Shown: positions 7,243 through 59,694, counted from the first letter of the stretch. The stretch: 64,000 nucleotides of DNA from Rhodocyclaceae bacterium (GCA_016702335.1 JADJEF010000020.1:1538032-1602031), one strand, 5' to 3'. Made by a program: numbers and translations. Notes: generated by a model not told the origin, from the sequence alone.

Positions 7243-9464
7243 ACAGCAGCACCGCAAGTGCCGGAACCCGCCGCATGCCTGATCATCGCGCAAATCGCCG
7301 TGTTACCAGCGCCGACTTGCGGAATAGCGTAGGCAATCGACTGGAAAGCGCATTTCGCGGCCACTTGGAAAGCGCCTTGCGCGCCTACGCCGGGGTGCTG
7401 TTCTGCACCTCACCCCGGCTGGGCGCCTGGCTGGCGGCGATCACCTGGTGTGCGCCGCGCGCGGCGGCGGCGGGCACGCTAGCGCTGCTGGCGTCCATGC
7501 TCTGGGCACGGCTGTTTTCGCTGGAGAAAAGCGGCGAGGGGCATCTGGTCAACAGCCTGCTGGCCGGGCTGTGCCTCGGTGCCTTTCATGCCTTTGACAG
7601 CGTGCTGGCCGGCTGGCTGTTGGCTGCGTCACTCCTCACTACCCTGCTCACCCACGCGCTGGCCGGCCCGCTCTGGCAGCTGGCGCGCCTGCCGGTGCTC
7701 AGCCTGCCCTTTGTGCTCGGCAGCTGGGCGGTGAGCCTCGGCGCGCATCAGTCCTTTTCCCTGTCGATGACCGGCACTACGCTCAATCACCTCGCCGGGC
7801 CATCGTTCGGCAGTTGGGGCGATGCGTTTTTTACCGCGCTGGGCTGGCTGTTGCTGGTGCCCTACCCGCTGGCGGGTGCACTGATCTTTGCCGGCCTCAT
7901 CGCCGCCTCGCGCTATCTGGCCCTGCTCGCGCTCGCTGGCTATCTGGCCGGCCAGTTGGTAATCGCGCTGCTCGCCCACGGCGATACGCAAGCCACCGGC
8001 TTCAACTTCATGCTCGCCAGCATGGCGCTCGGCGGCACCTTCGCCGTGCCCGGCCGGCTGAGCTTTGCCGTTGCGCTCGGTGGCGGCGCGCTGGCCGCGG
8101 CGCTGGTCCTGATGCTCGCGGCACCCCTGGGCGCACAGGGCTTGAGTCTGCTCACCCTGCCCTTCATTCTTGCGGTGTATTTGTGGCTGGCAGCGCTGGG
8201 CAGTCGCGTGCACTCCGGCTCGCTGCAGCTACGTCTGGCACACCCCGGCGACCCGGAAAGCGCCTTCGCCGCCGAGCGGCTGGGGCGGGCGCGCGGTCTC
8301 GCCGGCGACAGCATCGACAGCATTCCGCTGGCCGTACCCTTCTATGGCGAATGGCAGGTCACGCAGGGCTTCGATGGCGAGCACACGCATCAGGCATCGT
8401 GGCAGCATGCGCTGGATTTTGAAATCTTCGCAGACGATGCGCCCGGCAGCGGCAACGGCGATGCCCGCGAGGACTATTTCTGCTTTGGCGCGCCTGTGCT
8501 GGCACCTGCCGCCGGCACCGTGGTCGCCACCGTCGATCACCTGCCCGACTGCCGGCCCGGCGAGGCGGATCTGGCCAACAACTGGGGCAACCATGTACTG
8601 ATCCGCACCGCCGGCGGTGTGTACGTGCTACTTGCGCATCTGCGCCAACACAGCCTCTGCGTCCAGCCCGGTGCCTGGGTGACGGTAGGCGAGCGCATCG
8701 CCGCCTGCGGCAGCTCGGGCCGCTCGCCGGTGCCGCACCTGCATCTGCAGGTGCAAAGCACCGCCGCGCTGGGCAGCCCGACCCTGCCCTTTCATCTGGT
8801 CAATGTCATCGTGCGCCAGGCTGATGCAGAGAGCGAGTTTCGCCTCTGTCATCGCCCCACGCAGGGCGAAGCGATTGCCGGCGTGCAGCGCGACGAGGTA
8901 CTGGCACAGGCCATGGTGCCGACCGTGGGCATGGCCACACACTACCGCTTACCTTCTGGCGGGCAAGCCAGTCTGCGCGCCGAGTTGACCCTGCTCGGGC
9001 AGGCTCGTCTGCACTGTGACAACGGCACTCAACATGCCTCCTGTGCCTTTGACGGACAGGGGGCGAGCCTGGCCGCCTATGATCGGCAGGGGCCGCGCAG
9101 CCCGCTGCTCGATACCTGGCTGCTCGCCCTGGGCCTGAGTGCTCTGAGCAGCGCGGCACAGAGCTGGCGCGATGCCCCGGCACTTGAGCTGTGGCCGCTG
9201 GCACCCTGGCAACGCGCCCTGGTCGCCCTGCTCTATCCGCTGGGCGCGGCCGGACGCAGCCACTACCAGCGCCACTGGGATCTCGCCGAGCAATGCTGGC
9301 GCATTGACGGTACGCATCACTTCACTCTGTTGCCCGGACTACGCGCCCTGCACTGGCAGGCGACCACCCACGCCTGGGTCGCCCCCGGCCAAGGCGTTCG
9401 GCGCCTGCACGTAAGCATGGACGATCGCTGCTGGTTGGCACACCTCGAATCACCCACCCACTAA
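7239..9464 (+). CDS. polytopic membrane domain (urea-transporter-like) fused to C-terminal M23 (LytM-type) metallopeptidase
   Basis: About 8-10 hydrophobic helices in the N-terminal roughly 350 aa. C-terminal M23 motifs HQASWQHALDF (HxxxD) and HLHLQV (HxH). Start is GTG 7239 overlapping the upstream stop, or ATG 7275. A copy of the dispersed repeat lies in the 5' end. Confidence 0.7.
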   Translation: MNSSTASAGTRRMPDHRANRRVTSADLRNSVGNRLESAFRGHLESALRAYAGVLFCTSPRLGAWLAAITWCAPRAAAAGTLALLASMLWARLFSLEKSGEGHLVNSLLAGLCLGAFHAFDSVLAGWLLAASLLTTLLTHALAGPLWQLARLPVLSLPFVLGSWAVSLGAHQSFSLSMTGTTLNHLAGPSFGSWGDAFFTALGWLLLVPYPLAGALIFAGLIAASRYLALLALAGYLAGQLVIALLAHGDTQATGFNFMLASMALGGTFAVPGRLSFAVALGGGALAAALVLMLAAPLGAQGLSLLTLPFILAVYLWLAALGSRVHSGSLQLRLAHPGDPESAFAAERLGRARGLAGDSIDSIPLAVPFYGEWQVTQGFDGEHTHQASWQHALDFEIFADDAPGSGNGDAREDYFCFGAPVLAPAAGTVVATVDHLPDCRPGEADLANNWGNHVLIRTAGGVYVLLAHLRQHSLCVQPGAWVTVGERIAACGSSGRSPVPHLHLQVQSTAALGSPTLPFHLVNVIVRQADAESEFRLCHRPTQGEAIAGVQRDEVLAQAMVPTVGMATHYRLPSGGQASLRAELTLLGQARLHCDNGTQHASCAFDGQGASLAAYDRQGPRSPLLDTWLLALGLSALSSAAQSWRDAPALELWPLAPWQRALVALLYPLGAAGRSHYQRHWDLAEQCWRIDGTHHFTLLPGLRALHWQATTHAWVAPGQGVRRLHVSMDDRCWLAHLESPTH
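7291..7325 (+). repeat. dispersed element copy 1 (gcaaatCGCCGTgttaCCAGCGCCGACTTGCGGaat)
   Basis: Read directly from the sequence. Lies in the 5' end of the M23-fusion gene, just downstream of the decarboxylase stop. Confidence 0.85.
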
Positions 9465-9476
9465 ACGGAGAATCTC

Positions 9477-10091
9477 ATGAAACTCAAGCTCAATGCCCTG
9501 CTCGTCGTTGCATCAATCACCTTTGCCGGTTCCTCGGCGTTTGCCCAAGCAAGTTCGTGGAAGGACTCGTACGGGCACGAGAGCGGCGGTCGCTACGCGC
9601 AAGCCGCAGAAGCCATGGAGCAGGTGCTGCGCGAAGCGCCAGGGCACAGTTTTGCCCTGATGCGCCGCGGCTGGCTCAACTACCTGCAGGGCCGCCATGC
9701 CGAGGCGCTGCGCGACTATGACAACGTGCTCTTGCGCAACCCTAATGCACTGGAAGCGCGCCTGGGGATCACCTTGCCGCTGATGGCGCAAAAACGTTGG
9801 CCCGAAGCCGCCGCCGAGGCGCGCAAGGTGCTGGCCGTGAATGCCTGGGACTACACCGCGCACACGCGTCTGCTGGCCTGCGAAGAAGCCGAGCGGCAGT
9901 GGGACGAACTGGCCCGGCACGCCAATGCCCTGGCCGTGCGCTACCCCTCGGATGCCACGGTGCTGGTGTATCTGGCCCGCGCCGAATTGGCGCGCGGCAA
10001 CGCGAAGGGCGCGCGCAGCGCCTACGCGCAGGTGCTCGAGCGCGCCCCGACGAATGCCGAGGCCTTGGGCTATTTCAGCAAAAGCACCTAG
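9477..10091 (+). CDS. secreted TPR-repeat protein
   Basis: Signal peptide MKLKLNALLVVASITFAGSSAFA. TPR-like repeats (ALMRRGWLNYLQGRHAEALRDYDNVL...). RBS ggagaa. Lies 12 bp after the M23 gene. Confidence 0.7.
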   Translation: MKLKLNALLVVASITFAGSSAFAQASSWKDSYGHESGGRYAQAAEAMEQVLREAPGHSFALMRRGWLNYLQGRHAEALRDYDNVLLRNPNALEARLGITLPLMAQKRWPEAAAEARKVLAVNAWDYTAHTRLLACEEAERQWDELARHANALAVRYPSDATVLVYLARAELARGNAKGARSAYAQVLERAPTNAEALGYFSKST

Positions 10092-10197
10092 CCCCGAAAC
10101 TGCCGGACAGCCTCGACCTCAGAATCACTTCAACCATAGTCTGGTGCGGACTAAGGTTCGAGCTCAGGCAGTCGGGATTGCAGCGAAAGCCTATGCG

Positions 10198-11275: not shown

Positions 11276-11312
11276 TCTCCTTGTGGGGTATTCGCCTGAG
11301 TCAGGCCGCGAT

Positions 11313-15120: not shown

Positions 15121-15158
15121 GCGCAAATCGCCGTGTCACCAGCGCCGACTTGCGGAAA
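15121..15158 (+). repeat. dispersed element copy 2 (nearly identical to copy 1 over ~40 bp)
   Basis: gcgcaaatCGCCGTgtcaCCAGCGCCGACTTGCGGaaaa. Intergenic, between two minus-strand genes. Confidence 0.85.
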
Positions 15159-15185: not shown

Positions 15186-15881
15186 TCAGCCAGCGCTCCC
15201 CACGTGCACCAGCTCATCGCGCCACTGATCCCAGGTCACGCCTTTGCCCGTGGTATCGCGGTAGTCATGGCGCACCGAGCGGCCTACGCTCGGCGCATAC
15301 CAATAGGTTTCGCTGATGCGGCCCTGCCAGCGATAGCGGCCATCGGTCGCCTCGTAGCGCCCCTCGTGCTCGATGCGCAGCGCCTCGAAACGTCCGGCCG
15401 GCGTGCTCACCGCTTCGTAGCCAACGACACGCGCGGTCTGGTTCACGCTGACCGGGTTCTTGCCCGCGTAGTCATAGCGAAACGACCACGACTGCCCGAT
15501 GACGAGCGGAAAGCGCAGCGGCTCGTAGCGTCCGCGCAGCTTGGCGTCGGCAAAGGCCTGCGTGGCCGCTTCCATCTGCTCGTCGGTCACACTGCCCTGA
15601 CGCGTACTGTCCTCGGAGGATTCGATGGTCCAACGCACCGTCCATTGGCCCTGCTGCTCGGACACCAGCTGTTGGGAAAAGCGTTCGATCTCCTGGTTGC
15701 GCCACTGGTCAATACGCCGGTAGGTCAGGATTTGCCCGGCACGCAGCGTCGGCAAGGCGGCGAGATTGGCGGCCTGGGCGGTGGTGAGCTTCGGCTTGCT
15801 CGGCGCGTTGCGTGTGGGTGGCGCGGCGCACCCCGTGGCCAGACTCAGGAAGGTCAGTGACAGAAAAAAGTGCTTGCTCAT
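15186..15881 (-). CDS. hypothetical lipoprotein
   Basis: Lipobox (LSLATGC) after MSKHFFLSLTF. 232 aa. Sits 15 bp downstream of the DUF1566 gene. Confidence 0.55.
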   Translation of the reverse strand: MSKHFFLSLTFLSLATGCAAPPTRNAPSKPKLTTAQAANLAALPTLRAGQILTYRRIDQWRNQEIERFSQQLVSEQQGQWTVRWTIESSEDSTRQGSVTDEQMEAATQAFADAKLRGRYEPLRFPLVIGQSWSFRYDYAGKNPVSVNQTARVVGYEAVSTPAGRFEALRIEHEGRYEATDGRYRWQGRISETYWYAPSVGRSVRHDYRDTTGKGVTWDQWRDELVHVGSAG

Positions 15882-22411: not shown

Positions 22412-23541
22412 CGGCCGCGGGCAATGGCGATGGGCACTACGGTCGCCGCCGCTGGGCGCTCGTGCGCCGTCCCCGGCGTGCCACGAAAGCCGATGACGTG
22501 GTCGACGGCCAGACGGATGCCGATCTTTTCACCCACCGCGTGGTTGTGGTGCGAGGGCACCAGCGAGAGCAATTCGCGCCCCGATGCCAGGCGCAAGGTA
22601 TAGAGAAAGTCGGCACCGCGAAAGGACTTGGCTACGACCTCGGCCTGCAGCTCGCTGGCATCGTCATGCACAATGTCGTCTGGGCGCAGCAGCACGTCGA
22701 GGTGGCAGTCGCGCTGGCAGGTCATGCAGGTTTCAGCGCATTCGAGGGGCAGGTCGGAATGCAGCACGCCCAGCTCGACCTGCACCTCGCCCTTGCCCAC
22801 CACCTCGCCGGGCATGAACACCCCCTGGCCGATGAAGTCGGCCACCGCGCGCGTCGCCGGTTGGTGATACAGCTCGTAGGGGGGTGCCCATTGCTCGATG
22901 CGCCCGTCGCGCATTACACCCACCACATCGGCCATGGCAAAGGCCTCGTGTTGATCATGCGTGACCAGAATGGCCGAGGTGCCCGAGCGCTTGAGGATGT
23001 CGCGCACTTCGAGCGAGAGGCGCTCACGCAGCTCGACATCGAGATTAGAAAAGGGCTCGTCCATGAGCAGCAGATGCGGTGCCGGCGCCAGTGCCCGCGC
23101 CAGGGCCACGCGCTGCTGCTGGCCACCGGAAAGCTCGTGCGGATAGCGCCCGCCCTGAGCCGCCAGCCCGACCAGGTCCAGCATTTCCTCAATTCGCCGT
23201 ATCGCCAGCGCCGACTTGCGGTCAGGCAGGCCAAAACCGACGTTCTGGGCAATGGTCAGGTGCGGAAACAGAGCGTAGTCCTGAAACACCATGCCGATGC
23301 GGCGCTTTTCCGGCGGCAGTTGCCGGCGCGCATCGGCAATCAACTCGCCACCCAGCGCAATGCGGCCAGCCTGCGGCGTTTCGAAGCCCGCAATCAGGCG
23401 CAATACCGTCGTCTTGCCGCAGCCCGAGGCACCGAGCAGGCAGGCGATATCCCCGTGTTCGAGGGCGAACGACAGCTCACGCACCACGGGGGTCTTTCCG
23501 TAGGCATGGGATAGGGCATCCACTGAGAGGATCGCGGACAT
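22408..23541 (-). CDS. ABC transporter ATP-binding protein (Fe3+/polyamine-type, FbpC/PotA-like)
   Basis: Walker A GASGCGKTT, signature LSGGQQQRVALARAL, Walker B LLLMDEPFSNLD, C-terminal TOBE-like domain. The start is Met at 23541; the extension to 23622 is rejected. Contains a copy of the dispersed repeat. Confidence 0.85.
   Translation of the reverse strand: MSAILSVDALSHAYGKTPVVRELSFALEHGDIACLLGASGCGKTTVLRLIAGFETPQAGRIALGGELIADARRQLPPEKRRIGMVFQDYALFPHLTIAQNVGFGLPDRKSALAIRRIEEMLDLVGLAAQGGRYPHELSGGQQQRVALARALAPAPHLLLMDEPFSNLDVELRERLSLEVRDILKRSGTSAILVTHDQHEAFAMADVVGVMRDGRIEQWAPPYELYHQPATRAVADFIGQGVFMPGEVVGKGEVQVELGVLHSDLPLECAETCMTCQRDCHLDVLLRPDDIVHDDASELQAEVVAKSFRGADFLYTLRLASGRELLSLVPSHHNHAVGEKIGIRLAVDHVIGFRGTPGTAHERPAAATVVPIAIARGR
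23195..23221 (+). repeat. dispersed element copy 3
   Basis: CGCCGTatcgCCAGCGCCGACTTGCGG. Lies inside the minus-strand ABC ATPase gene, where it encodes ...RKSALAIRRI... on the other strand. Confidence 0.85.
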
Positions 23542-33927: not shown

Positions 33928-34872
33928 TCAGCGAGTCTGCGAGGCGATCCAGATCGCCAGCCCCTGAGCATCCAGTTCCAGATCCATGTCCCAGATCTCC
34001 AGCAACTGCACATCTGACTGCTGACAGCCGTGGGCGCGCGCTTCGGCCAGCAGGTAGGTGCGCAGGTGCTGATGAATCGCCGCAATCGCCGTGTCACCAG
34101 CGCCGACTTGCCGCGCAATCGCCACCATGCCGTCCAGCCGGCGCAGCAGGTCAGTCGCTAGCAACGCGGGCGGTGCGCGCCGGCTGTAGTGGGTGAGATA
34201 CACCGCCTCGGGCTGGCAGGCGAGCATGCGTGCCACCGAATCGCGCATGGCCTCGGGATCAAACTGGCTGGGCGTGGTGGTGGGGAAGATGAAGGCGCGG
34301 CCATCGACATCGCATTCGCGATAACTCAGTCCAAAGGTATCGCCGGTGAATAGGCCACGCGCGGCGTGATCGTGAATGAAGACATGGTGCTTGGCATGGC
34401 CGGGGCAGTCATGAAAGCTCAGGGTGCGTGCGCCCAATGTCAGCATCATCCCATCGGTGGTTTCGAGCACGCGTTCGGCTGCAATGGGGATAAGCGCACC
34501 GTAGAGTGCCTTGGCGCGCTCGCTGCCGTATACCTCTTCGGTCGCGGCCCAGAGCTTGGCGGGCTCGATCATGTGCCGCGCCCCGCGCGGGTGCACCACC
34601 AGTTTGGCGTGCGGAAAGGCCTGCATCATGGCGCCAGCGCCGCCGGCATGATCGAGGTGAATGTGTGTGAGCAACACATAGTCAACGCAGTCCGGCGTGA
34701 GGCCCAGCTCGCTCAGCGCAGCTTGAGCGGCCGGCAGGCTGTAGTTGCTGCCGCAATCGACAAAGGCGGCGCGACCGTTGTCGATAATCAGGTGGATCGC
34801 CGCCAGTTGGTGGCGCACATAGGTGGCGTCGATGGCATGAATGCCGTTGCCGTAGTCGATGCGGGGGGTCAT
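33928..34872 (-). CDS. MBL-fold metallo-hydrolase
   Basis: LLTHIHLDHAGG motif. 314 aa. Contains a copy of the dispersed repeat near its 3' end (encoding VGAGDTAIA). Confidence 0.75.
   Translation of the reverse strand: MTPRIDYGNGIHAIDATYVRHQLAAIHLIIDNGRAAFVDCGSNYSLPAAQAALSELGLTPDCVDYVLLTHIHLDHAGGAGAMMQAFPHAKLVVHPRGARHMIEPAKLWAATEEVYGSERAKALYGALIPIAAERVLETTDGMMLTLGARTLSFHDCPGHAKHHVFIHDHAARGLFTGDTFGLSYRECDVDGRAFIFPTTTPSQFDPEAMRDSVARMLACQPEAVYLTHYSRRAPPALLATDLLRRLDGMVAIARQVGAGDTAIAAIHQHLRTYLLAEARAHGCQQSDVQLLEIWDMDLELDAQGLAIWIASQTR
34087..34113 (+). repeat. dispersed element copy 4
   Basis: CGCCGTgtcaCCAGCGCCGACTTGCCG. Lies inside the minus-strand MBL gene, where it encodes ...VGAGDTAIA... Confidence 0.85.
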
Positions 34873-35042: not shown

Positions 35043-35441
35043 ATGTTCTCCGGTTTCGATGTGCTGCTGATGCGCCTGCGCCGCCATGGCTGGGCCTTGC
35101 TCGCCCTGGCCTTGAGCCTGGTGCTGCTGCAAACCGCGACGCTCGCCCGTAGCGCGCCTCATGGGAGCGTCGGCGGCGAAAGCGGGCTCAGTGAAATCTG
35201 TACCGTACAAGGTGTCATCACCGTCAATGCCAACGGCGAACCGGTGCTGCCGGCCAGCAGCGACGCTGGCCACGATTGCTGCGTCAGTTGCATTCTGGCT
35301 GCCCCGGCACTCCCCGATACGGCCCGCATCGCCGTCCCGCCAGCGCCGACTTGCGGAACGCAAGCCGCCCACGTCGCCGCGCCTTACCCTGGGCGCGACC
35401 AGTACCGCGCGCCGCCGAGCCGCGCCCCACCCTCCGCCTGA
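35043..35441 (+). CDS. DUF2946-like small membrane-anchored Cys-motif protein (paralog 1)
   Basis: N-terminal TM. HDCCVSC motif. C-terminal ..IAVPPAPTCG...PP..A tail shared with paralogs at 36627 and 40901. Copper-locus context. Confidence 0.55.
   Translation: MFSGFDVLLMRLRRHGWALLALALSLVLLQTATLARSAPHGSVGGESGLSEICTVQGVITVNANGEPVLPASSDAGHDCCVSCILAAPALPDTARIAVPPAPTCGTQAAHVAAPYPGRDQYRAPPSRAPPSA
35330..35356 (+). repeat. dispersed element copy 5
   Basis: CGCCGTcccgCCAGCGCCGACTTGCGG. In-frame in DUF2946 paralog 1 (IAVPPAPTCG). Confidence 0.85.
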
Positions 35442-35510
35442 GTGTTTTCCGGTGGCCCTGTTCCTGCGAACAGCGGCCTTTGGTTTCTCACTTTTGTTCA
35501 GGAGGGATTC

Positions 35511-36083: not shown

Positions 36084-36133
36084 TCACAATTCCCTCCACT
36101 GCCCACTTCATTCACCTTAGCGAAAGAAATCCC

Positions 36134-36604: not shown

Positions 36605-36626
36605 GCCACTGAGTAACGGCCGCGCC

Positions 36627-36995
36627 ATGCACAGTTGCCGTCTGCGCCACCCGGCTCCGGCATGGCTCATGCTCGTGCTGGGCCTGCTGGTCTGGTGCGG
36701 TCAGGCCATTGCCTTTCAGCGGCTGGCGCAGGCTGAACTGGTGGCGCTTGATCCGCTCGCGCGCATCGTCGCCGCTTCGCTCTGCACCAGTCATGGCGGT
36801 GAAGCCGGCCCTGTTGCCCAAACCCATGACTGCTGCCTCAGTTGCGTCGGCGTTGCCAGCGGTGGCATCCCCGGCAGCGCGCCAAGCGCCGTCTCACCAG
36901 CGCCGACTTGGGGACTGTTCGTTACCGGCATCCACGCACCACCGCCAACACCTCGCTATCTGCGCCGCCCGGCGCGCGAGCCACCCCTCGCCTGA
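36627..36995 (+). CDS. DUF2946-like protein (paralog 2)
   Basis: TM region. HDCCLSC motif. C-terminal AVSPAPTWG...PPPTPRYLRRPAREPP tail. Confidence 0.55.
   Translation: MHSCRLRHPAPAWLMLVLGLLVWCGQAIAFQRLAQAELVALDPLARIVAASLCTSHGGEAGPVAQTHDCCLSCVGVASGGIPGSAPSAVSPAPTWGLFVTGIHAPPPTPRYLRRPAREPPLA
36887..36913 (+). repeat. dispersed element copy 6
   Basis: CGCCGTctcaCCAGCGCCGACTTGGGG. In-frame in DUF2946 paralog 2 (AVSPAPTWG). Confidence 0.85.
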
Positions 36996-37067
36996 TCGAC
37001 ACCCACTGATTCCTCCACGTGCGCGCCGCGCACCGTGGCCGTATTCCCTGTCGATTGGAAGAATTTC

Positions 37068-39203: not shown

Positions 39204-39213
39204 GGAATCCATC

Positions 39214-40901: not shown

Positions 40902-41272
40902 TGCAGCAAGCCCGGCGCGCCCGGTGCAACGCCAGCGCCAGCCGCTGGCTGCTGGCGCTCGGACTGCTGGTGATACTGATGCAGGCCACGGCGCGGTGGC
41001 CGCAGGCACGCACCGTGTCGCTGCAGATGACGCAGGTATGCACCGCGCACGGCATGGTGTCGGTAGTGCTGCCGGGTCCACCGGCACAGAGCGCGCCGGG
41101 CGCGCACGAGTGCTGTCGCGACTGTGTGCTGAACACCCCCGCGCCCCCGGCGCTGCACGCAATCGCCGTCCCGCCAGCGCCGACTTGGGGGCTTTTATCC
41201 AGCGCGGTCAGTACATCGATCACGCCGCCCCGCTACCTGCGCCACCCGGCGCGCGCGCCGCCGCACGCCTGA
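40901..41272 (+). CDS. DUF2946-like protein (paralog 3)
   Basis: Start overlaps the upstream stop (TGATG). HECCRDC motif. C-terminal IAVPPAPTWG...PPRYLRHPARAPP tail. Confidence 0.55.
   Translation: MQQARRARCNASASRWLLALGLLVILMQATARWPQARTVSLQMTQVCTAHGMVSVVLPGPPAQSAPGAHECCRDCVLNTPAPPALHAIAVPPAPTWGLLSSAVSTSITPPRYLRHPARAPPHA
41164..41190 (+). repeat. dispersed element copy 7
   Basis: CGCCGTcccgCCAGCGCCGACTTGGGG. In-frame in DUF2946 paralog 3 (IAVPPAPTWG). Confidence 0.85.
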
Positions 41273-41394
41273 GCCTTTTCCGGCCTTTTGGCTGTCCTGT
41301 TGTCTGCTCTGTGCGCGCACCGCGCGGTGCGTATGCATACGCGTATCCGCCTGCCGGCGGCGCTCCCCTGATCTTTTTCGGAAAGTCTTCTGTC

Positions 41395-43593: not shown

Positions 43594-43636
43594 CCTGAAA
43601 TGCGGCGATCGGGACGAAGCCGTGACTCGCCCCGAT

Positions 43637-43663
43637 CGCCGTTTCACCAGCGCCGACTTGCGG
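43637..43663 (+). repeat. dispersed element copy 8
   Basis: CGCCGTttcaCCAGCGCCGACTTGCGG. Intergenic, between the TonB-dependent receptor stop and the GGDEF-EAL gene start. Confidence 0.85.
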
Positions 43664-46152: not shown

Positions 46153-46189
46153 ACCAAACCGGCGCTGATCCGTCGCCGGTGCGTGACAG

Positions 46190-46216
46190 CGCCGTGTCAC
46201 CAGCGCCGACTTGGGG
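46190..46216 (+). repeat. dispersed element copy 9
   Basis: CGCCGTgtcaCCAGCGCCGACTTGGGG. Intergenic, between the convergent csp-like and fbpA genes. Confidence 0.85.
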
Positions 46217-49352: not shown

Positions 49353-50735
49353 GTGCACACCATCGTATTCCATCGCCAACCGCCGTTACGCCAGCGCCGA
49401 CTTGCGGTACTTGCGCGCATTGGCGACTGGCTGGCCACGCACCGCCGCGTCATCCTCGGCGTGCAGTGGGTGGTGGTCGCGTGCTATCTGCTGCTCGTCG
49501 CGCTGCCCGCCTTCCTGCCCCTGCCGGCGGGCGACGCACACCTGTTTGGCTCGGCACTGTGGCATGAACGTGTGGTGCTCTTGGCGCAATACCTGTTCTG
49601 GGGCGTGTGGTGGCCCTTCGTCATTCTGTCCATCATGCTCATGGGCCGCGTCTGGTGCGGCGTGCTCTGCCCCGAGGGCGCGCTCTCGGAATGGGCCAGC
49701 CGGCACGGGCGCGGCGGCGCGATTCCCAAATGGCTGCGCTGGGGCGGCTGGCCCTTTGTTGCCTTCGTACTGACCACGGTTTATGGGCAGCTGGTCAGCG
49801 TGTATGACTACGCGCAGGCGGCACTGCTGATCCTAGGCGGCTCGACCGTTGCCGCGATGATCGTGGGCTATTTCTACGGCCAGGGCAAGCGCGTCTGGTG
49901 CCGCTACCTGTGCCCGGTCACCGGCGTGTTTGCGTTGCTGGCGCGCTTAGCGCCCATCCACTTTCGCGTCGACCGCGCCGCGTGGGCCGCCTACCCGCAG
50001 CGCACGCCAGCGGTCGATTGCGCACCGCTGCTGCCCGTGAGCCACCTGAATGGCATGGCGCAGTGCCACGCCTGCGGCCGCTGCAGCGGGCATCGTGATG
50101 CGATGACGCTGGCGGCGCGTTCGCCCAATGCCGAAATCCTTGCCGGCGATGCGCCAACGCACTGGGACATGGCGCTGCTCTGCGTCGGCATTTTCGGCGT
50201 GGCGCTGGGCGCGTTTACCTGGAGCCTGGCGCCGACGTTTGTGGCGCTGAAACAGACAACGGCCGCATGGCTGATCGAGCGCGACATCCTCTGGCCGCTG
50301 GCCGAGAGCCCGGCCTGGTGGCTGCTCACGGCCTACCCGCAGGCCAACGACGTATTCACCCTGCTCGACGGCGCAGCCATCCTCGGCTGGATCGCAGCGA
50401 CCGCACTGGTGCTCGGCGGCGGCATCTGGCTGACGCTGCACGGCGCGGCGCGGCTGGCCCAGGTCGATGCCCGTCGCCTGGCCCTGGGTCTCGTGCCACT
50501 GGCCGGCGCCAGCCTGTTTCTCGGCCTCTCAATGATGACGGTGAATCACCTGCGCGCCGAGGGCGTGCTGCTGCCCTGGCTTGAGGTGGTGCGAGTGGGC
50601 CTGCTGGGCGGTACGGCGCTGTGGTCGGCCGCGCTGCTCTGGCGACTGGCGGCGGATCGCCTCGCCGGCTTTCTAACCGCCCTGCTGCCGGTGGTCGCGG
50701 TGTGCAGCGTCTGGACGCTAACGCTGCTCAAATGA
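49353..50735 (+). CDS. membrane-bound polyferredoxin (FtrD/NapH-like)
   Basis: TM helices plus CxxC..CP pairs (WCGVLCPEG, WCRYLCPVTG, CHACGRC). The dispersed repeat lies in the N-terminal cytoplasmic region. Confidence 0.7.
   Translation: MHTIVFHRQPPLRQRRLAVLARIGDWLATHRRVILGVQWVVVACYLLLVALPAFLPLPAGDAHLFGSALWHERVVLLAQYLFWGVWWPFVILSIMLMGRVWCGVLCPEGALSEWASRHGRGGAIPKWLRWGGWPFVAFVLTTVYGQLVSVYDYAQAALLILGGSTVAAMIVGYFYGQGKRVWCRYLCPVTGVFALLARLAPIHFRVDRAAWAAYPQRTPAVDCAPLLPVSHLNGMAQCHACGRCSGHRDAMTLAARSPNAEILAGDAPTHWDMALLCVGIFGVALGAFTWSLAPTFVALKQTTAAWLIERDILWPLAESPAWWLLTAYPQANDVFTLLDGAAILGWIAATALVLGGGIWLTLHGAARLAQVDARRLALGLVPLAGASLFLGLSMMTVNHLRAEGVLLPWLEVVRVGLLGGTALWSAALLWRLAADRLAGFLTALLPVVAVCSVWTLTLLK
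49381..49407 (+). repeat. dispersed element copy 10
   Basis: CGCCGTtacgCCAGCGCCGACTTGCGG. In the 5' end of the polyferredoxin gene, encoding PPLRQRRLAVL in a different frame. Confidence 0.85.
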
Positions 50736-51430
50736 ACGTGCGCACAACCACCTTGATCGTGTCCTCGCCGACACAGATTCTGAGCTCTGCCTGTCACTGC
50801 GCACTGGTCGCCGGCGTGCATCTGGCGGTGCTGGCATGGCTGTGGCAGGCGGTGCCGACCGCTGTGCGCGCGCCGCTGGTGTTGCAGATGCGCATGATCG
50901 CAGCAGGGGTAGCACCAACGGTCACAGCGCCACTATCGGCCGTGTCCCCACTCCAGTCGCGCCGGCAAAACGCCGTCCTGCCAGCGCCGACTTCCCGACC
51001 CATCGTTGCACCCGTCGCGCCACCCATAGCATCACCCACGGCCACATCGCCCGTCGCCGTTGCCGATGCGCCCGCGCCAACCATCGCCGCCACTGAGAGC
51101 TTCGCCACGCCCACCGAGAGCACCCCCGCGAGCGCCCCGGTCGACCCCACGCCGCCACGCTTTGACGTCGGCACGCTCGACAACCCCACGCCCGCCTACC
51201 CCGCGCTCTCGCGCCGGCTGGGCGAGCAGGGGCAGGTGCTGCTGCAGGTCGAGGTCGGCACCGACGGCCGCGCGCACAAAGTGGCGGTGAAACGCAGCAG
51301 CGGCTACCCGCGTCTGGACCACGCGGCGCTGGAAACCGTGCGCCGCTGGACCTTTATCCCCGCCCGCCTGAGCCGCCTCGCCATCGCGGCCAGCGTGCTG
51401 GTGCCAATTCGTTTCTCGCTGAAAGAGTGA
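50732..51430 (+). CDS. tonB: TonB energy-transducer
   Basis: ATG overlaps the upstream stop (ATGA). N-terminal TM. Pro/Ala-rich spacer. C-terminal TonB domain (GQVLLQVEVGTDGRAHKVAVKRSSGYPRLDHAALETVRRWTFIPA). The GTG start at 50621 is rejected. Confidence 0.75.
   Translation: MNVRTTTLIVSSPTQILSSACHCALVAGVHLAVLAWLWQAVPTAVRAPLVLQMRMIAAGVAPTVTAPLSAVSPLQSRRQNAVLPAPTSRPIVAPVAPPIASPTATSPVAVADAPAPTIAATESFATPTESTPASAPVDPTPPRFDVGTLDNPTPAYPALSRRLGEQGQVLLQVEVGTDGRAHKVAVKRSSGYPRLDHAALETVRRWTFIPARLSRLAIAASVLVPIRFSLKE
50971..50997 (+). repeat. dispersed element copy 11 (CTTCCCGACCC sub-variant)
   Basis: CGCCGTcctgCCAGCGCCGACTTCCCGACC. In the TonB proline-rich spacer (AVLPAPTSRP). Confidence 0.85.
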
Positions 51431-53399: not shown

Positions 53400-55619
53400 A
53401 TGTCCCGTTTTACCCGTTTCACCTCACGTCGCCAGCCGCTGGCGGCTGCCGTCGCCACGGCAATCGCCGTCCTGTCAGCGCCGACTTGGGCGCAGCAGTT
53501 GCTCCAGGAAACCGTCGTCTCCGGCTCGCGCATCGAGCAGGAAATCGACAGCGTGCCGGCCACGCTCACGGTCATCACTGACGAGACCATTGCCCGCGAA
53601 AACCCCACTGATCTCGACGACCTGCTCAAGCATGAGGCGGGCGTTTCGGTGCGCAGCCAGCCCAATCGTTCGTCGGGTGTGTTCCGCGCCGTCGGCCGCG
53701 CCGGCAACGAGGGCGTGAACATTCGCGGCCTCGAAGGTGACCAGGTGCGTCTGCAGGTCGATGGCGTCGCCCTGCCCATGACCTACAGCAGCGGCCCCTA
53801 CGCCGCCGGGCGCGGTGATGTGATCGACCCCGAGGGCTACAAACAGGTCGAGATCCTGCGCGGGGCGGCCTCGACCCAGTTCGGTTCCGACGGCCTCGCC
53901 GGGGCCGTGAGCTTTCGCACCAAGGACCCGGCCGACCTGCTGACGCTGGGCAAGGACGTGCAGGGCAACATAAAGTTGGCCTATGCCTCGGCCAATCGCG
54001 AATGGCAGTTCGCGCCCTCGGCCGCATTCAAGACCGACAGCGTGCAGGGCATGGTGCTGGCCAGCTACCGGCGCGGTCATGAGACCGAGACCATGGGCAC
54101 GAACAACGCGCACAGCGTCAATCGCACCAGCGCCAACCCCTCGGAGCGCGACGCCGATTACCTGCTGGCCAAGCTGGTCTGGTCGCCCTCGGCGGCGCAT
54201 CAGTTCAAGCTCACCGCCGAGTCGCTCAAGCGCGACAACGCCACCGATGTGTACACGTTCTTTGGCGACCCCTTCGCCGCCGCCACGCTCACCGACGTCG
54301 AGGTCGAAGAAAAGGTCACGCGCGAACTGGTCAAGCTCGACTACCGCTACGTGCCGCAGAACCTGTGGTTCGATCTGCTCGAACTCTCGCTCTATACGCA
54401 GGCATCGGAAAACCGCCAGCTCGGGCTGGAGCGCCGTTCGGCCAACCCCCTGCTGCGCACCCGCGATACCCGCTATGCCGAAGACACGCTGGGCGGCAGC
54501 CTGCTGCTGGAGAGCAATCTGCGCTTGGGCAGTACCGAGCACCGCGTGGTCGGCGGGCTGGATCTCGTGCGCAACGACGTGACCTCGCTCAAGGATGGCT
54601 ACAACAGCTCGGGCGCCGCCTTCGTGGCCAACAAGAGCTTTCCCGATACCGGGTACCGCACGCTCGGCGCTTTCCTTCAGGATGAAATCCGTCTCGGCCC
54701 GGTCAGCTTCACGCCGGGGGTGCGCTACGACGAATTCAAGCTCTCGCCCAAGGCCGACGCGCTGTATCGGGTGAACAACACCGTCGCCCCCGCCGCGCTC
54801 AAAGGCGATGAACTCTCGCCGCGTCTGGGCGCGATCTGGTCCGTGTCGCCCCTGCTTCAGCCCTACGCGCAGTACGCGCACGGCTTTCGCGCGACCAAAC
54901 CCAGCCAGGTCAATGGCGGTGTCACCAACCTGACCACGGTCACCGGTTCCGGCCCCTACACCTCGCAAGGCAACCCCGACCTGCTGCCCGAAACCAGCGA
55001 CACCGTCGAGCTCGGCCTGCGCGGGCGCGACGCTACCCGGCGTTACAGCGTGTCGGTGTTCAAGGGCAAGTACAAGGATTTCATTGCCTCCAATCAGCTG
55101 GTGGCGAGCAATGTGGACCTCGGGCTGGGGCCGCTGGTCGATGTCTTCCAGACCGTCAACCTCTCCCGCGTCACCCTGCAAGGTTTTGAAGCGCGCGGCG
55201 AATGGGCATTCGCCAAGGGCTGGCGCACCAGCCTCGCCTACGCCCACGTCAAGGGCGACTCGGATGACGGCAACACCAAAGCCCCGCTGGCCACCGTCGA
55301 CCCCGACAAGCTGGTGCTCGGACTGAGCTACGAGCAGGCCGGGCACTGGGGCGCATCCGCCACCGCGACGGCGGTCGAGCGCAAGCAGCGCAACCCGGAC
55401 CCGACCACCTACACCGCGCCGGGCTACCGACTGCTCGACCTCTCCGCGTGGTACGCGTTCAGCAAAGCCACGCGCCTCGCCACGACGCTCAACAATGTCT
55501 TCGACCGCAAATACGTCGAATGGGCCGACGTGCGCGACCTGGCGGCGACGAGCACCGTGCTCGACGCCTATACGCAGCCGGGGCGCAACTTCACCGTCAG
55601 CCTGACGCACAGCTTCTGA
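53400..55619 (+). CDS. TonB-dependent outer-membrane receptor (heme/metalloporphyrin-type candidate)
   Basis: RBS aaaggaa. Signal peptide incorporating the dispersed repeat (AIAVLSAPTWA/QQ). Plug domain. Ends ...SLTHSF. Confidence 0.85.
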   Translation: MSRFTRFTSRRQPLAAAVATAIAVLSAPTWAQQLLQETVVSGSRIEQEIDSVPATLTVITDETIARENPTDLDDLLKHEAGVSVRSQPNRSSGVFRAVGRAGNEGVNIRGLEGDQVRLQVDGVALPMTYSSGPYAAGRGDVIDPEGYKQVEILRGAASTQFGSDGLAGAVSFRTKDPADLLTLGKDVQGNIKLAYASANREWQFAPSAAFKTDSVQGMVLASYRRGHETETMGTNNAHSVNRTSANPSERDADYLLAKLVWSPSAAHQFKLTAESLKRDNATDVYTFFGDPFAAATLTDVEVEEKVTRELVKLDYRYVPQNLWFDLLELSLYTQASENRQLGLERRSANPLLRTRDTRYAEDTLGGSLLLESNLRLGSTEHRVVGGLDLVRNDVTSLKDGYNSSGAAFVANKSFPDTGYRTLGAFLQDEIRLGPVSFTPGVRYDEFKLSPKADALYRVNNTVAPAALKGDELSPRLGAIWSVSPLLQPYAQYAHGFRATKPSQVNGGVTNLTTVTGSGPYTSQGNPDLLPETSDTVELGLRGRDATRRYSVSVFKGKYKDFIASNQLVASNVDLGLGPLVDVFQTVNLSRVTLQGFEARGEWAFAKGWRTSLAYAHVKGDSDDGNTKAPLATVDPDKLVLGLSYEQAGHWGASATATAVERKQRNPDPTTYTAPGYRLLDLSAWYAFSKATRLATTLNNVFDRKYVEWADVRDLAATSTVLDAYTQPGRNFTVSLTHSF
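53465..53490 (+). repeat. dispersed element copy 12 (TCAGCGCC variant)
   Basis: CGCCGTcctgTCAGCGCCGACTTGGGC. Forms the signal-peptide h/c-region of the TonB-dependent receptor (AIAVLSAPTWA). Confidence 0.8.
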
Positions 55620-55620: not shown

Positions 55621-58600
55621 ATGCGCGCCATCTTGCTGTTACTGCTGTGCGTGGCGAACTTAACCTGCCACGCCGCCCACCTGCTGGTCGTCACCACCGG
55701 CCCCGTCACCGCCGGCAAGTTCCGTGTGCTGGACGAGGCGGCGCGGGCGCATGGCCTTACCATCGAAGCGCGTTTTGTCGAGAAGCTCGACCGTCCCGTC
55801 AATGCCGACTTCTGGCGTGGGGCGGACGCCGTGCTGTTCGACACCCCGCGCGAACACATGGAAGAAGCCGTGCGCGCCAAGGTCGCCCCGGCGCTGCCGG
55901 CCCTGGCGCAGGCCAAGCTGCCGGTGCTCTGGGCACCGGCCAGCGCGCCGCGCGCAAGCCACCTGCCGGACGAGCTGGCGCGCCGGCTGCACGCCCATTA
56001 CGTCAATGGCGGGCGCGACAACAACGCCGGCTTTGTCGCCACGCTGGCGGCGCACCTGCAAGGCAAACCGTGGCAGGCGTTGCCCGGCATCAAACCGCCC
56101 ATCGTCTTTCCGGCCACGGCCATCTACCACCCGCGCGCACCGGCGACGGTGTTTTCCGACACGGCGGCGTATCGCGCGTGGCATGGCCGACGCGCTACGC
56201 AACCCGTCGTCGCCATCGCCTTCCACCAGCAGGCCATCGCCGCCGGCCAGACCGGTCTGATCGACGACCTGATCGCCCGCATCGAGGCGGCCGGGGCGCT
56301 GCCGCTGGCCTTTTACAGCCCGGTGATGGACAACACGGCCATCACGGCCTTGCTCAAACCCAAGGGCGAGCGCGTCGCCGACGTCCTGATCAACACCCAG
56401 ATCGTGCTCAACCCGGAGGGGCGACGCAGCGAATTCGCCGCGCTCGGCATCCCGGTGCTTCAGGCATTGCACTACAAGAAAGGCGACGAGGCGGCCTGGC
56501 GTGCCGACACGGTCGGCATCACGCTCATGGACGTGCCCTTCTATGTCTCGCAGCCCGAATACGCCGGCATCCACGACATTCAGGTGGCCTCGGTCACCGA
56601 CCCGGCGACCGAGCTGGTGACGCCCATTGCCGATCAGGCGGCGAGCGTGGTCGGCAAGGCGGTAAATCTGGCGCGCCTCGCCCACCTGCCCAATCGCGAA
56701 AAACGCGTGGCGGTGATGTTCTGGAACTACCCCTCGGGCGAAAAAAACCTCGGCGCGTCATTCATGAACCTGCCCGAGAGCCTCGCGCATACCTTGCGTG
56801 AAATGAAAGCTGTCGGCTATCGCGTGGAAACCCCCGAGCCGCGCCAGCTCACCCTGCTCTTGCAGCGTCTGCTGGTGCCCTTCTACCGCCCGGCACTACA
56901 AGTCCGTGACGAGATGGAAACGCTGCTGCGCGAAGGGCTCGCCGAGGCGATACCGATGAGCGCGTACAAGCGCTGGTTCGACGCCCTGCCCGAGGATGTG
57001 CAACAGCGCTGGCTGCAGGCCATGGGCTACCCGGAAAAATCCGGCTTCGCCATCCGTCGCGACGGCGTGCAGTACTTCGTCGTGCCGCGCCTGAAACTGG
57101 GCAATGTGACCATCCTGCCGCAGCCGCCGCGCGGCGAGCCGACGGCCGGCAGCCTCGCCGCCACCGAAAAGGCGCTCTACCACTCCAGCAGCGCCGCGCC
57201 CACGCACTACTACATGGCCGCCTACCTGTGGCTGCGCCAGCAGATGCAGCTCGACGCGCTGGTGCATTTCGGCACCCACGGCACGCAGGAATGGCTGCCC
57301 GGCAAGGAGCGCGGGCTGGCACTCACCGACTACCCGCTCATGGCGCTAGGCGACGTGCCGGTGATCTACCCCTACATCATCGACAACATCGGCGAGGCGG
57401 TGCAGACCAAGCGGCGCGGGCGCGCCGTAAATATCAGCCACCAGACCGCACCGTTCACGCCCGCCGGCCTGCACGATGCCTTCACCAAGCTGCACGACGA
57501 ACTGCACGCCTGGCTGGCGCAGGACGCCGGCCCGGTACGCGACCAGATTCGCGACGAGCTGATCGCGCGCGTGCTGCGCGAAAACCTGCACCGTGACATG
57601 GGCTGGGACGAAGCGCGCATGACGCGCGAATTCCGCCCCTTCATCGACGCCCTGCACGACCACCTGCACGAGCTGGCGCAGGCCGCGCAGCCTGCCGGGC
57701 TGCACACCTTCGGCCGTGGCGCGGGCGAGCATGCACGCTTGGCCACGCTGCTCATGATGCTGGGCAACGAGTTCTGGGAGGCAGCCTACAAGCACAGCGG
57801 CGGCGACCCGGCCGAGGCGGACGAGGCGATCATCGCCAACTACGACCAGCTCGCCGGCACCACGCCCTATCGCCTGCTCAAGACGCAACTGGCGCAAGCC
57901 GACGACACGGCGCTGCCCGAGCCTTTGCGCACGCACATGGCGCAGGCGCGGCGCTGGCATAGCGACCTTGACGCGCGTTCGGAAACACAGGCGCTGCTGG
58001 CCGCGCTGGCCGGGCAGTACATCGCCACCAGCTACGGCGGCGACCCGATCAAGAACCCGGACGCCCTGCCCACCGGGCGCAACGTCTATGGCTTCGACCC
58101 TTCGCGCGTGCCCACCAAGGCCGCATGGGAAGCGGGCAAGGCGGCGCTGGAGCAGCTGGTCGCGGCGCACAAGGCCAGGAGCGGTAGCGCACCGAAAAAG
58201 CTTGCCTTCACGCTCTGGTCAGTCGAGACCATGCGCCATCAGGGCATGCTCGAAGCGCAGGCGCTGTGGGCGCTCGGTGTCGAGCCGGTGTGGGATGCCG
58301 GCGGGCGCGTCACCGATGTCAGGCTGGTGTCGCGCAAGGCGCTGGGCCGGGCGCGCATCGACGTGGTGCTCTCGGCCACGGGCCTCTACCGCGACCACTT
58401 TCCCAATGCCATGAAGCAGCTGGCCAAAGCCGCGCAGCTGGCCGCACAAGCACCGGAGGCAGTGAAAGAAACGGATAACCCGGTGACGCAGAATGCCCGC
58501 GCACTAGTCGCGCAACTGACCACCCAGGGCTGGAGCGGCGCCGCCGCGCAGAAGGCCGCCGCCACGCGCATCTACTCGGCCGCGAGCGGCAACTACGGCT

Positions 58601-59694
58601 CGGGGCTGGACGATGCCGCGACCGCCACCGATACCTGGCAGAGCAAGGCCGAAGGTGACAAAAAACTGGCCGAGCTGTACCTGAAAAAGATGCAGTTCGC
58701 CTTCGGCCCCGATGAAGCCGACTGGGGCAAGAGCGGCGGCGATCTGGCACGCGAGGCGGGCGTGTCGGAAGAGCAGCTGGAAAAAGCCGCAGAGCAGGGC
58801 AGCCTCGCCGTCAATCTTTACGCCGCCACGCTCAAGGGCACCGAGGCGGCGGTGCTGGCACGCACCTCCAACCTCTACGGCATGCTCACCACCGACGACC
58901 CCTTCCAGTACCTGGGCGGCATTGCCACGGCGGTACGGCATCTCGACGGGCAGGCACCCGGCCTCTACATCGCCAACCAGCGCGGCAGCGGGCCGGGGCG
59001 CATCGAGGAGGCCGGTGCCTTTCTGGCCAAGGAACTGGCCACGCGCCAGTTCCACCCCGGCTACATCAAGCACCTGATGGCCGAGGGCTACGCCGGCACG
59101 CTGGAACTGCTCGACGGCATGAACAACTTCGCCGGCTGGACGTCAGTTGCGCGCGAGATCGTGCGCGATGACCAGTGGCAACAGTTCGCCGAGGTCTACG
59201 TGCAGGACAAGCACAATCTCGGGCTGGACAAATGGTTCGAGGCGCAGAACCCGCACGCGCAGGCGCAGATGGTCGAGCGCATGCTCGAAGCGGCGCGCCA
59301 CGGCTACTGGCAGGCCGATCCGGCGACCGTTGAAACACTGAAGGCACGCTACCGTGACCTCGCCGTGCGCTATGACGTGCGTACCGATAACGTCGCCCTG
59401 CAGAAGTTCGCCGGGCTGCCCGGGTACGGGCTGGGTCGCTCGGTGGCACCGCCGCCCGAGGCGGTAGCGCAGCCGCCGGCGGCCGCCTCACGACCGGCGC
59501 TGCGGCAAACCGCCGTACCACCAGCGCCGACTTCCCGACCCGCCGCCGAACCAACACCCCTGATCACCGGCCAGAAGTTGCAGAAGGTCGCGGACGCGGT
59601 TGTCGAAGCAACGCCATGGCTGGGAATGCTCGCGCTGATTCTGATTGCGCTGACACCCCTGGGCGGCGCACTGCGGCAATGGCGGCGCGCATGA
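55621..59694 (+). CDS. CobN/Mg-chelatase-family large subunit homolog (HmuS-like putative metalloporphyrin chelatase/dechelatase)
   Basis: 1357 aa. CobN-family core (HFGTHGTQEWLPGKERGL). Signal-like N-terminus. Sits between a TonB-dependent receptor and a ChaN-like gene. Confidence 0.8.
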   Translation: MRAILLLLLCVANLTCHAAHLLVVTTGPVTAGKFRVLDEAARAHGLTIEARFVEKLDRPVNADFWRGADAVLFDTPREHMEEAVRAKVAPALPALAQAKLPVLWAPASAPRASHLPDELARRLHAHYVNGGRDNNAGFVATLAAHLQGKPWQALPGIKPPIVFPATAIYHPRAPATVFSDTAAYRAWHGRRATQPVVAIAFHQQAIAAGQTGLIDDLIARIEAAGALPLAFYSPVMDNTAITALLKPKGERVADVLINTQIVLNPEGRRSEFAALGIPVLQALHYKKGDEAAWRADTVGITLMDVPFYVSQPEYAGIHDIQVASVTDPATELVTPIADQAASVVGKAVNLARLAHLPNREKRVAVMFWNYPSGEKNLGASFMNLPESLAHTLREMKAVGYRVETPEPRQLTLLLQRLLVPFYRPALQVRDEMETLLREGLAEAIPMSAYKRWFDALPEDVQQRWLQAMGYPEKSGFAIRRDGVQYFVVPRLKLGNVTILPQPPRGEPTAGSLAATEKALYHSSSAAPTHYYMAAYLWLRQQMQLDALVHFGTHGTQEWLPGKERGLALTDYPLMALGDVPVIYPYIIDNIGEAVQTKRRGRAVNISHQTAPFTPAGLHDAFTKLHDELHAWLAQDAGPVRDQIRDELIARVLRENLHRDMGWDEARMTREFRPFIDALHDHLHELAQAAQPAGLHTFGRGAGEHARLATLLMMLGNEFWEAAYKHSGGDPAEADEAIIANYDQLAGTTPYRLLKTQLAQADDTALPEPLRTHMAQARRWHSDLDARSETQALLAALAGQYIATSYGGDPIKNPDALPTGRNVYGFDPSRVPTKAAWEAGKAALEQLVAAHKARSGSAPKKLAFTLWSVETMRHQGMLEAQALWALGVEPVWDAGGRVTDVRLVSRKALGRARIDVVLSATGLYRDHFPNAMKQLAKAAQLAAQAPEAVKETDNPVTQNARALVAQLTTQGWSGAAAQKAAATRIYSAASGNYGSGLDDAATATDTWQSKAEGDKKLAELYLKKMQFAFGPDEADWGKSGGDLAREAGVSEEQLEKAAEQGSLAVNLYAATLKGTEAAVLARTSNLYGMLTTDDPFQYLGGIATAVRHLDGQAPGLYIANQRGSGPGRIEEAGAFLAKELATRQFHPGYIKHLMAEGYAGTLELLDGMNNFAGWTSVAREIVRDDQWQQFAEVYVQDKHNLGLDKWFEAQNPHAQAQMVERMLEAARHGYWQADPATVETLKARYRDLAVRYDVRTDNVALQKFAGLPGYGLGRSVAPPPEAVAQPPAAASRPALRQTAVPPAPTSRPAAEPTPLITGQKLQKVADAVVEATPWLGMLALILIALTPLGGALRQWRRA
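59511..59537 (+). repeat. dispersed element copy 13 (CTTCCCGACCC sub-variant, as copy 11)
   Basis: CGCCGTaccaCCAGCGCCGACTTCCCGACC. Near the 3' end of the CobN-like gene (TAVPPAPTSRP). Confidence 0.85.

Follow-up and report, generated by a model that had tools for sequence, protein, structure and literature searches.

A dispersed, asymmetric 25-nt word of uncultured Rhodocyclaceae, maintained at the DNA level, and its tentative reading as a DNA-uptake-signal analogue

A 64,000-nt stretch from a Rhodocyclaceae bacterium (GCA_016702335.1, JADJEF010000020.1:1538032-1602031; "the window" below is this whole stretch at its full length) carries 13 copies of a short DNA word, which was found to be a clade-specific, asymmetric 25-mer with sharp edges and maintained at the level of the DNA. 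The word arose in place, at positions that tolerate it, and its shifts between lineages, here called dialects, are concerted. Tentatively, we read it as an analogue of a DNA uptake signal, accumulating through mutation and recognition-based drive. The data comprised this one window, approximately 30 kb of flanks and approximately 1.5 Mb of fragments from other genomes (those compared with the window being labelled L002 to L111), many of which were selected for carrying the motif; genes in these fragments were called with a simple codon model. Contig JADJBN010000001.1 of the metagenome-assembled genome (MAG) GCA_016703725.1 ("Rhodocyclaceae bacterium") matches the window at about 99% identity.

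Copies of the word and conservation of the DNA

All 13 window copies lie on the + strand and share the consensus aatCGCCGTnyyrCCAGCGCCGACTTGsgg, with 31-nt frames starting at 7292, 15125, 23191, 34083, 35326, 36883, 41160, 43633, 46186, 49377, 50967, 53461 and 59507 and with 1.24-10.9 kb between neighbouring copies. When both strands were scanned with a 31-nt weight matrix trained on the window copies, exactly 13 sites scored 39.8-50.3 bits and the runner-up on either strand scored merely 14.6 bits; the window is therefore without decayed or reversed copies. The 14-nt core CCAGCGCCGACTTG occurred 10 times exactly and three times with one mismatch, on the + strand throughout the window, and at up to two mismatches it gave 19 matches where dinucleotide shuffles of the window gave an expectation of 1.6; for the 13 full copies, chance would yield about 0. 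An earlier note on this DNA, made by eye from the sequence, had described at least 13 near-invariant copies at a frequency far above chance, and these figures bear it out. It had also set the element apart from an array of clustered regularly interspaced short palindromic repeats by its irregular spacing, and from repetitive extragenic palindromes and bacterial interspersed mosaic elements (REP/BIME) by its lack of a hairpin; both distinctions held, single copies showed no significant fold (z -1.8 to +1.6 relative to shuffled sequence), and no Rfam family matched at gathering score across the whole window. The long match that it saw between copies 1 and 2 amounts to 87% identity across 54 nt, and the sub-variant that it saw in copies 11 and 13 is a common tail, CTTCCCGACCC, within 87 nt of 71% identity. 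The window copies are partly non-independent, three of them lying in paralogous DUF2946 genes and two being CTTCCCGACCC variants.

Conservation acts on the DNA and not on the protein, because copies stand between genes as well as in three sense frames and antisense, keep rare codons, and remain intact within a hypervariable linker. The earlier note had argued for conservation at this level from copies on both coding strands and in three frames, and the window does hold copies in sense frames 0, 1 and 2, two antisense copies and intergenic copies. Frame-0 copies read AV.PAPT and always use CCA and ACT, codons that account for 4% of the Pro and 5% of the Thr codons in window genes. The CobN linker around copy 13 is Pro/Ala-rich and hypervariable in sequence among 14 orthologues, with similar length; in an orthologue at 90% nucleotide identity (L040), the 25 bases of the copy are identical while the surrounding linker is about half identical, with insertions and deletions. 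In CobN orthologues at a greater distance the linker is unrelated but about as long, and the CobN copy is therefore not an insertion.

The family consensus derived from 250 distinct copies reads 5'-CGCCGT-NYCG-CCAGCGCCGACTT-TY, with information at positions -1 to +23 only (approximately 37 bits in total). The layout is GC-rich and bipartite, with 18 near-invariant bases arranged 5+13 around a semi-free 4-nt spacer and spanning about two helical turns. Neither these 250 copies nor the window copies showed terminal repeats, an insertion footprint or longer common flanks.

Several other candidate features were tried and rejected. An imperfect inverted repeat, GCAAATCGCCG / CGCCGACTTGC, showed no covariation and no significant fold, and a sigma-54 or extracytoplasmic-function promoter was ruled out by eye on its wrong spacing. 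A reverse match with three mismatches at 40248-40269 (-) proved to be the protein motif of a BNR Asp-box (SQDGG.SW) and not a decayed copy of the word; its orthologue at L049 4551-4572 (-) also falls on a BNR Asp-box (SQDGG.[ST]W), with 2-3 mismatches across both genomes. This common protein motif can imitate two-thirds of the word.

Distribution, dialects and a possible uptake signal

An exact-pattern scan with one genome per species returned at least 29 loci and, among the matches listed, nearly all came from Rhodocyclaceae/Sterolibacteriaceae MAGs (Sulfuritalea, Rugosibacter, Ca. Methylophosphatis, Propionivibrio, Thiobacillus). The search of close relatives proposed in the earlier note thus found the motif in Rhodocyclaceae MAGs, with a clade-restricted distribution. 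At the orthologous loci of Zoogloea (L048) and of a Comamonadaceae-like genome (L046) there were zero copies, and PLSDB plasmids and GenBank phages gave only chance-level partial matches. Two metagenome scans returned 0 and 4 loci, and at least 120 loci were found in IMG/VR viral contigs. The density is approximately one copy per 4.7-7 kb.

A fragment 97-98% identical to the window at the nucleotide level (L038) retains all six copies. One 25.9-kb contig (L041 and L049), whose CobN shares 66% amino acid identity with that of the window, holds 11 copies of a T dialect, CCAGCGCTGACTT or CCAGCACTGACTT, and three of these are orthologous to the window sites in the TonB linker, the receptor signal peptide (copy 12) and the CobN tail. 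A Sulfuritalea MAG (L039) has CCAGCGCCAACTY, copies in a Rhodocyclales MAG (L047) are more degenerate, and the orthologous DUF2946 site of L050 (78% nucleotide identity) is degenerate. The 3' ending -TTGSGG is the dialect of the window genome, with TTTY found elsewhere.

Intergenic copies made up 36/76 of those in chromosomal loci and 74/121 of those in prophage-type viral-contig loci, relative to a 33% non-coding baseline (p = 2e-10). The remaining 40-53% of copies in these two sets lie within genes, in sense frames 0, 1 and rarely 2 as well as antisense, and many copies fall 5-75 nt past a stop codon or in the first 90 nt of a gene. Within the window the majority of coding copies occupy linkers, signal peptides or terminal tails outside matched Pfam domains, the exceptions being the copy in an ABC ATPase and those in DUF2946. 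Spacing over an 80-kb region is more even than random (coefficient of variation 0.65, P = 0.04). Extra copies occur once per 21 kb in viral and prophage contigs compared with once per 7.4 kb in chromosomal ones, an approximately three-fold lower density in samples that are ascertainment-biased.

We favour the uptake-signal reading, with less than even confidence, because the clade restriction, in-place origin, permissive sites, frame bias, dialects and neutral orientation of the word match those of the DNA uptake sequences (DUS) and uptake signal sequences (USS). Known DUS and USS originate by mutation and recombination, occur in both orientations and are under-represented in coding DNA, and they show reading-frame bias, permissive positions, terminator pairs and dialects (PMC2817400; bioRxiv 10.1101/2025.10.24.684340). 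Under such a scheme, a lineage-specific, non-palindromic recognition word would be maintained as DNA at hundreds of sites per genome. Copies would originate by point substitution wherever it is tolerated, which is between genes, in signal peptides and Pro/Ala linkers, and in N- and C-terminal tails, and, once formed, would be held nearly perfect, and related lineages would have moved the entire set to slightly altered dialects. A surface receptor of the natural-transformation machinery would favour word-bearing DNA, fragments carrying the word would be taken up and recombined more often, and molecular drive would in this way spread and preserve the word along the chromosome, acting more weakly in resident prophages. 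The single orientation in the window would lie outside the mechanism and be due mostly to local chance in how genes are ordered, to paralogy and to sampling. The earlier note had offered an uptake-signal-type sequence as its second choice; the evidence has moved that choice ahead of the others, and its mechanism is what we infer.

A 2025 survey places uptake sequences only in Neisseriaceae (8 dialects) and Pasteurellaceae (2 dialects) (bioRxiv 10.1101/2025.10.24.684340). Our literature search turned up neither the word nor any uptake sequence of Rhodocyclaceae. If the uptake-signal reading is true, the word would be a third, independent and much longer example of an uptake sequence, and would imply self-selective natural transformation in the abundant uncultured Rhodocyclaceae of wastewater and groundwater. 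To our knowledge, uptake sequences are the sole known bacterial route to recognition of "self" DNA in transformation. The word would also give a sequence handle on the receptor, through co-variation with the dialects, and a marker separating core from foreign DNA in Rhodocyclaceae MAGs. If the reading is wrong, a clade-wide word of approximately 35 bits is kept within genes despite rare codons, and would call for a new binding protein.

Several points weigh against an uptake signal. The word has 18 fixed bases (approximately 34-37 bits), compared with 12 bp in DUS and 9 bp in the USS core, and its one copy per 4.7-7 kb is about 5-fold rarer than their roughly one per kb. Known uptake sequences do not show a one-strand run such as that of the window region, where 15/18 copies are co-oriented when the flanks are included (p = 0.0075, several of the copies being paralogous). 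Some of the IMG/VR copies lie in genuine modules of phages or prophages (major head, tape measure, integrase, RecET). Terminator-like inverted pairs number one only, with none in the window; that pair (L049 7459/7485) lies downstream of a gene and folds into a perfect hairpin of 24 bp (dG -30.4 kcal/mol, z = -10). Lastly, the functional step, by which the word would be recognised during uptake, is argued from analogy.

The main rival, to which we give perhaps one chance in several, is that the copies are binding sites of an abundant cytoplasmic protein, either a nucleoid-associated or architectural factor or the reader of a "self" tag for a nuclease or defence system, with the dialects reflecting co-evolution. 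Eighteen near-invariant bases in a bipartite arrangement over about two helical turns make a typical protein footprint, and clade-specific dialects, copies in resident prophages and neutral orientation are in keeping with such sites. There is also a precedent in the NTS/SRM repeats with their Ssn nucleases (PMC11893778). However, site-by-site selection on hundreds of sites of approximately 35 bits, rare codons included, would be hard without drive, the motif forms no hairpin, unlike SRM, and no candidate gene was linked to copies in the loci examined: even around the dense clusters in L007 and L012 the neighbours were only toxin-antitoxin and housekeeping genes, with no cognate gene.

Orientation, transcription and mobile elements

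Single orientation on the + strand, as stated in the earlier note, held for 13/13 copies of the window (binomial p = 2.4e-4) but not for its surroundings. The left flank carries two reversed copies, one of them within rsmB (approximately -3.7 kb) and the other antisense within birA (approximately -1.6 kb), whereas the right flank carries two more + copies at approximately 64.9 and 70.8 kb. The note had allowed for further or reversed copies; within the window there were none, and reversed ones turned up in rsmB and birA. The spacer between hemE and priA holds the DnaA boxes TTATGCACA, TTTTCCACA and TTATCCACA and further box-like sites, adjoining a long AT-rich tract (L052 15186-15641, corresponding to approximately -12.4 to -12.8 kb relative to the window and to approximately 441.1-441.6 kb of JADJBN010000001.1). 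It was the sole DnaA-box cluster in the 560 kb scanned, and we read it as a putative oriC approximately 12.6 kb left of the window, not beside dnaA.

The lead proposal of the earlier note was a replication-oriented motif of the Chi type or the FtsK-orienting polar sequence (KOPS) type, and a leading-strand word recognised by directional machinery (FtsK-, RecBCD- or helicase-like) would indeed account for the 13/13 copies of the window and the 15/18 with its flanks that point one way whatever the gene strand, four to five of them antisense. If the hemE-priA cluster is correctly taken as oriC, the 15 co-oriented copies would lie on the leading strand. However, the three copies closest to this putative origin, one of them in priA and beyond oriC, point the opposite, "wrong" way, and the switch of orientation at approximately -1.6 to +7.3 kb coincides with neither a dif site nor DnaA boxes; no dif-like site was found in the window, the flanks or the loci scanned. 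Outside the window lineage, adjacent copies had the same or different orientation in a ratio of 12:13 in chromosomal loci and 24:30 in viral-contig loci (36:43 combined), and orientation is neutral across the family. On the T-dialect contig it mostly tracks gene strand, through two gene-strand changes in 26 kb. Known polar motifs are moreover 5-8-mers without intergenic enrichment. We rate a replication-oriented motif as improbable because polarity fails in every other sampled genome and closest to the putative origin; the Chi/KOPS-like property proposed for the element is not supported and is unlikely.

Local base composition, which the earlier note had suggested comparing with orientation, carried no readable replication signal in the window, where GC skew tracks gene strand. 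Coding-strand skew of G and C at third codon positions, which are C-rich, is approximately -0.15 in + and - genes alike, and the skew of the window is therefore one of transcription or codon usage without a replication component. Counts of KOPS and Chi octamers in the window likewise gave no clear direction. A readout from the co-orientation between motif and coding bases was rejected, being confounded by mixed loci. The one-strand arrangement appears to be a local peculiarity. It is improbable that in the window lineage the word is both maintained by drive and replication-oriented, with 15/18 copies pointing away from the putative oriC. That combination would imply a strand-specific step, for example at replication forks, where incoming single strands would be integrated, or alternatively a directional translocase reading a 25-bp signal, unlike known uptake or architecture motifs.

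An element acting in transcripts or coupled to transcription, whether an RNA motif of untranslated regions or a signal on the non-template strand, seems very unlikely. It would suit the many copies 5-75 nt after stops or in the first 90 nt of genes, and the sense bias of curated chromosomal loci, where 27/36 copies were sense to the local gene (p = 0.004; 41:23 in a first sample). The bias was not replicated in the larger, independent viral-contig sample (18 sense to 29 antisense for coding copies, 16:14 for intergenic ones); in addition, perfect antisense copies lie within well-supported genes, sense and antisense copies are equally conserved, and neither structure nor an Rfam family was found. 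A relic of a mobile element (a miniature inverted-repeat transposable element (MITE), a solo terminal repeat or an integron-cassette fragment) is just as hard to credit: although copies in L007 cluster with other repeats between toxin-antitoxin cassettes and copies in L111 lie inside 316-bp tandem cassettes beside an IntI-like pseudogene, the word lacks terminal inverted repeats, target duplications and longer common flanks, its coding copies substitute for sequence and add none, whole sets shift dialect at orthologous sites, and the motif is missing from PLSDB plasmids.

Gene context and comparison with known systems

Each window copy was placed by a codon-usage gene model together with Pfam matches and the gene calls on the JADJBN010000001.1 record; all coordinates of copies below are on the + strand. 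Copy 1 (7292..7322; AAATCGCCGTGTTACCAGCGCCGACTTGCGG) encodes N-terminal residues, ahead of the UT domain, of a urea-transporter/M23 fusion gene and is read in sense frame 1 (NRRVTSADL). Copy 2 (15125..15155) is intergenic, 35 nt past the stop of a minus-strand gene (15186-15881). The two antisense copies are copy 3 (23191..23221), in an ABC-transporter ATPase gene (22408-23487, -) that reads RKSALAIRRIE there, and copy 4 (34083..34113), in a metallo-beta-lactamase-fold gene (33928-34872, -) at residues ~254-262 (QVGAGDTAI), after the Pfam domain (27-228). Assignment of the copy at 23191-23221 to a LysR helix-turn-helix was ruled out, the gene being the ABC ATPase.

Copies 5 to 7 are read in frame 0: copy 5 (35326..35356) in a small DUF2946 gene (35043-35441, +; IAVPPAPTC), copy 6 (36883..36913) in a DUF2946-like open reading frame (36525-36995, +; SAVSPAPTW) upstream of a TonB-dependent receptor gene at 37035, and copy 7 (41160..41190) in a DUF2946 gene (~40865-41272, +; IAVPPAPTW) upstream of a TonB-dependent receptor gene at 41395. 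Copy 8 (43633..43663) occupies the intergenic stretch that separates the receptor stop (43593) from the start of a GGDEF-EAL gene (43711). Copy 9 (46186..46216) lies in an intergenic spacer between two convergent genes, a + strand gene (45709-46152) that ends 39 nt before it and a solute-binding-protein gene (46264-47277, -) whose stop is 52 nt away. Copy 10 (49377..49407) covers codons ~9-18 of a Fer4_5 gene (49353-50735, +) in frame 2 (RQRRLA), preceding the first Pfam match. The last three copies are again in frame 0: copy 11 (50967..50997), a CTTCCCGACCC variant, in the Pro-rich linker of TonB (50732-51430; NAVLPAPTSRP); copy 12 (53461..53491), whose core has a single mismatch (TCAGCG), in the signal peptide of a TonB-dependent receptor (53400-55619; IAVLSAPTW); and copy 13 (59507..59537), the other CTTCCCGACCC variant, in the hypervariable Pro/Ala linker near the CobN C-terminus (55621-59694; TAVPPAPTSRP).

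The region 35043-43593 consists of two paralogous operons, each with DUF2946 and a TonB-dependent receptor, accompanied by PCuAC, BNR-repeat and Sco/AhpC-like genes, a gene layout that resembles copper uptake; in the two DUF2946 genes the motif is followed by 45 nt that encode PRYLRRPAR and share 84% identity. Between 25414 and 33112, a 1759-amino-acid DUF3686/DUF7902/AAA ATPase ("ATPase involved in DNA repair") adjoins a 740-amino-acid SPFH/Band-7 protein with tandem repeats of 120 bp (31401-31640); the region, perhaps a defence-type island, falls in the longest motif-free stretch (10.9 kb). At 4473-10091, consecutive genes for a PqqD-like protein, an ATP-grasp protein, a PLP-dependent decarboxylase, the urea-transporter/M23 peptidase fusion and a TPR protein may form a peptide-modification cluster.

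Other genomes showed further arrangements of the word. In L111, a 316-bp unit is repeated 4.7 times in tandem (629-2123 and 3489-4269; 91% identical), each time with one motif copy and an attC-like TAAC...GTTAGGC segment; the array adjoins a frameshifted IntI-like integrase and resembles an integron cassette array carrying the motif. Between the toxin-antitoxin cassettes of L007 (100-2960, -; DUF6036, MNT/HEPN-like) stands a composite repeat of approximately 110 nt, made up of the motif, approximately 60 nt and then a second dispersed word, AACCGTGGTCTGTCCCC. This second word adjoins motif copies in two other genomes (L012 2350-2366, L025 2000-2016), in either relative orientation, and is absent from the window. 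In a "split" copy at approximately L007 196-240, the 4-nt spacer between GCCGT and CCAGCGCCGACT is replaced by 25 nt of inserted sequence that contains a hairpin, ACCCCATACGGGGCATTTCATCCCG, and the insert recurs at L007 1914-1958. L002, L009, L010, L014 and L017, from MAGs of at least four assemblies, have in common a CusA/CzcA-type RND pump gene with the motif in frame 1 (ENRRVASADLYAAV; motif at approximately 4711, 4957, 2756, 5231 and 5957). The gene is truncated in L009; it may be a heavy-metal resistance gene moving between motif-bearing lineages.

Set beside known systems, the word is most like DUS and USS: it is non-palindromic and hugely over-represented in one clade, has a mutational origin in place, a preference for intergenic DNA or poorly conserved protein segments and a frame bias, and shows lineage dialects (also at orthologous sites). 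Further likenesses may lie in the two orientations found across the family, though not in the window region, in the one inverted hairpin pair, and in the lower density in mobile DNA, which comes from ascertainment-biased samples. Its total length is close to that of the extended USS of Pasteurellaceae (a consensus of about 29 bp with the 9-bp core), whereas its GC-rich, bipartite build with a semi-free 4-nt spacer differs from both types, and its host clade is one of uncultured Rhodocyclaceae. The DUS of Neisseriaceae comprise ATGCCGTCTGAA and 7 other dialects, and the GCCGT(C) that the word has in common with them is a lead only.

Chi (RecBCD/AddAB), KOPS and the SpoIIIE recognition sequences (SRS), read by FtsK and SpoIIIE, are likewise non-palindromic and dispersed in and outside genes, and the co-orientation in the window recalls them; they are, however, 5-8-mers with a genome-wide skew and no intergenic enrichment, whereas the word is 25 bp long, intergenic-enriched and orientation-neutral in relatives. 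The NTS/SRM repeats with Ssn (Neisseria and others), which are tied to transformation, resemble it as oriented repeats of approximately 30 bp in hundreds of copies, whose SRM variants co-vary with the cognate protein; SRM forms hairpins and clusters around ssnA (GIY-YIG), in contrast to the hairpin-free word with no linked gene in the loci examined. REP/BIME, enterobacterial repetitive intergenic consensus (ERIC) and Correia elements and MITEs share its short, dispersed and intergenic-enriched character, but these are palindromic or bounded by inverted repeats, strictly extragenic or inserted, and variable, whereas the word is asymmetric, often lies in coding sequence without a change of length, and is nearly invariant.

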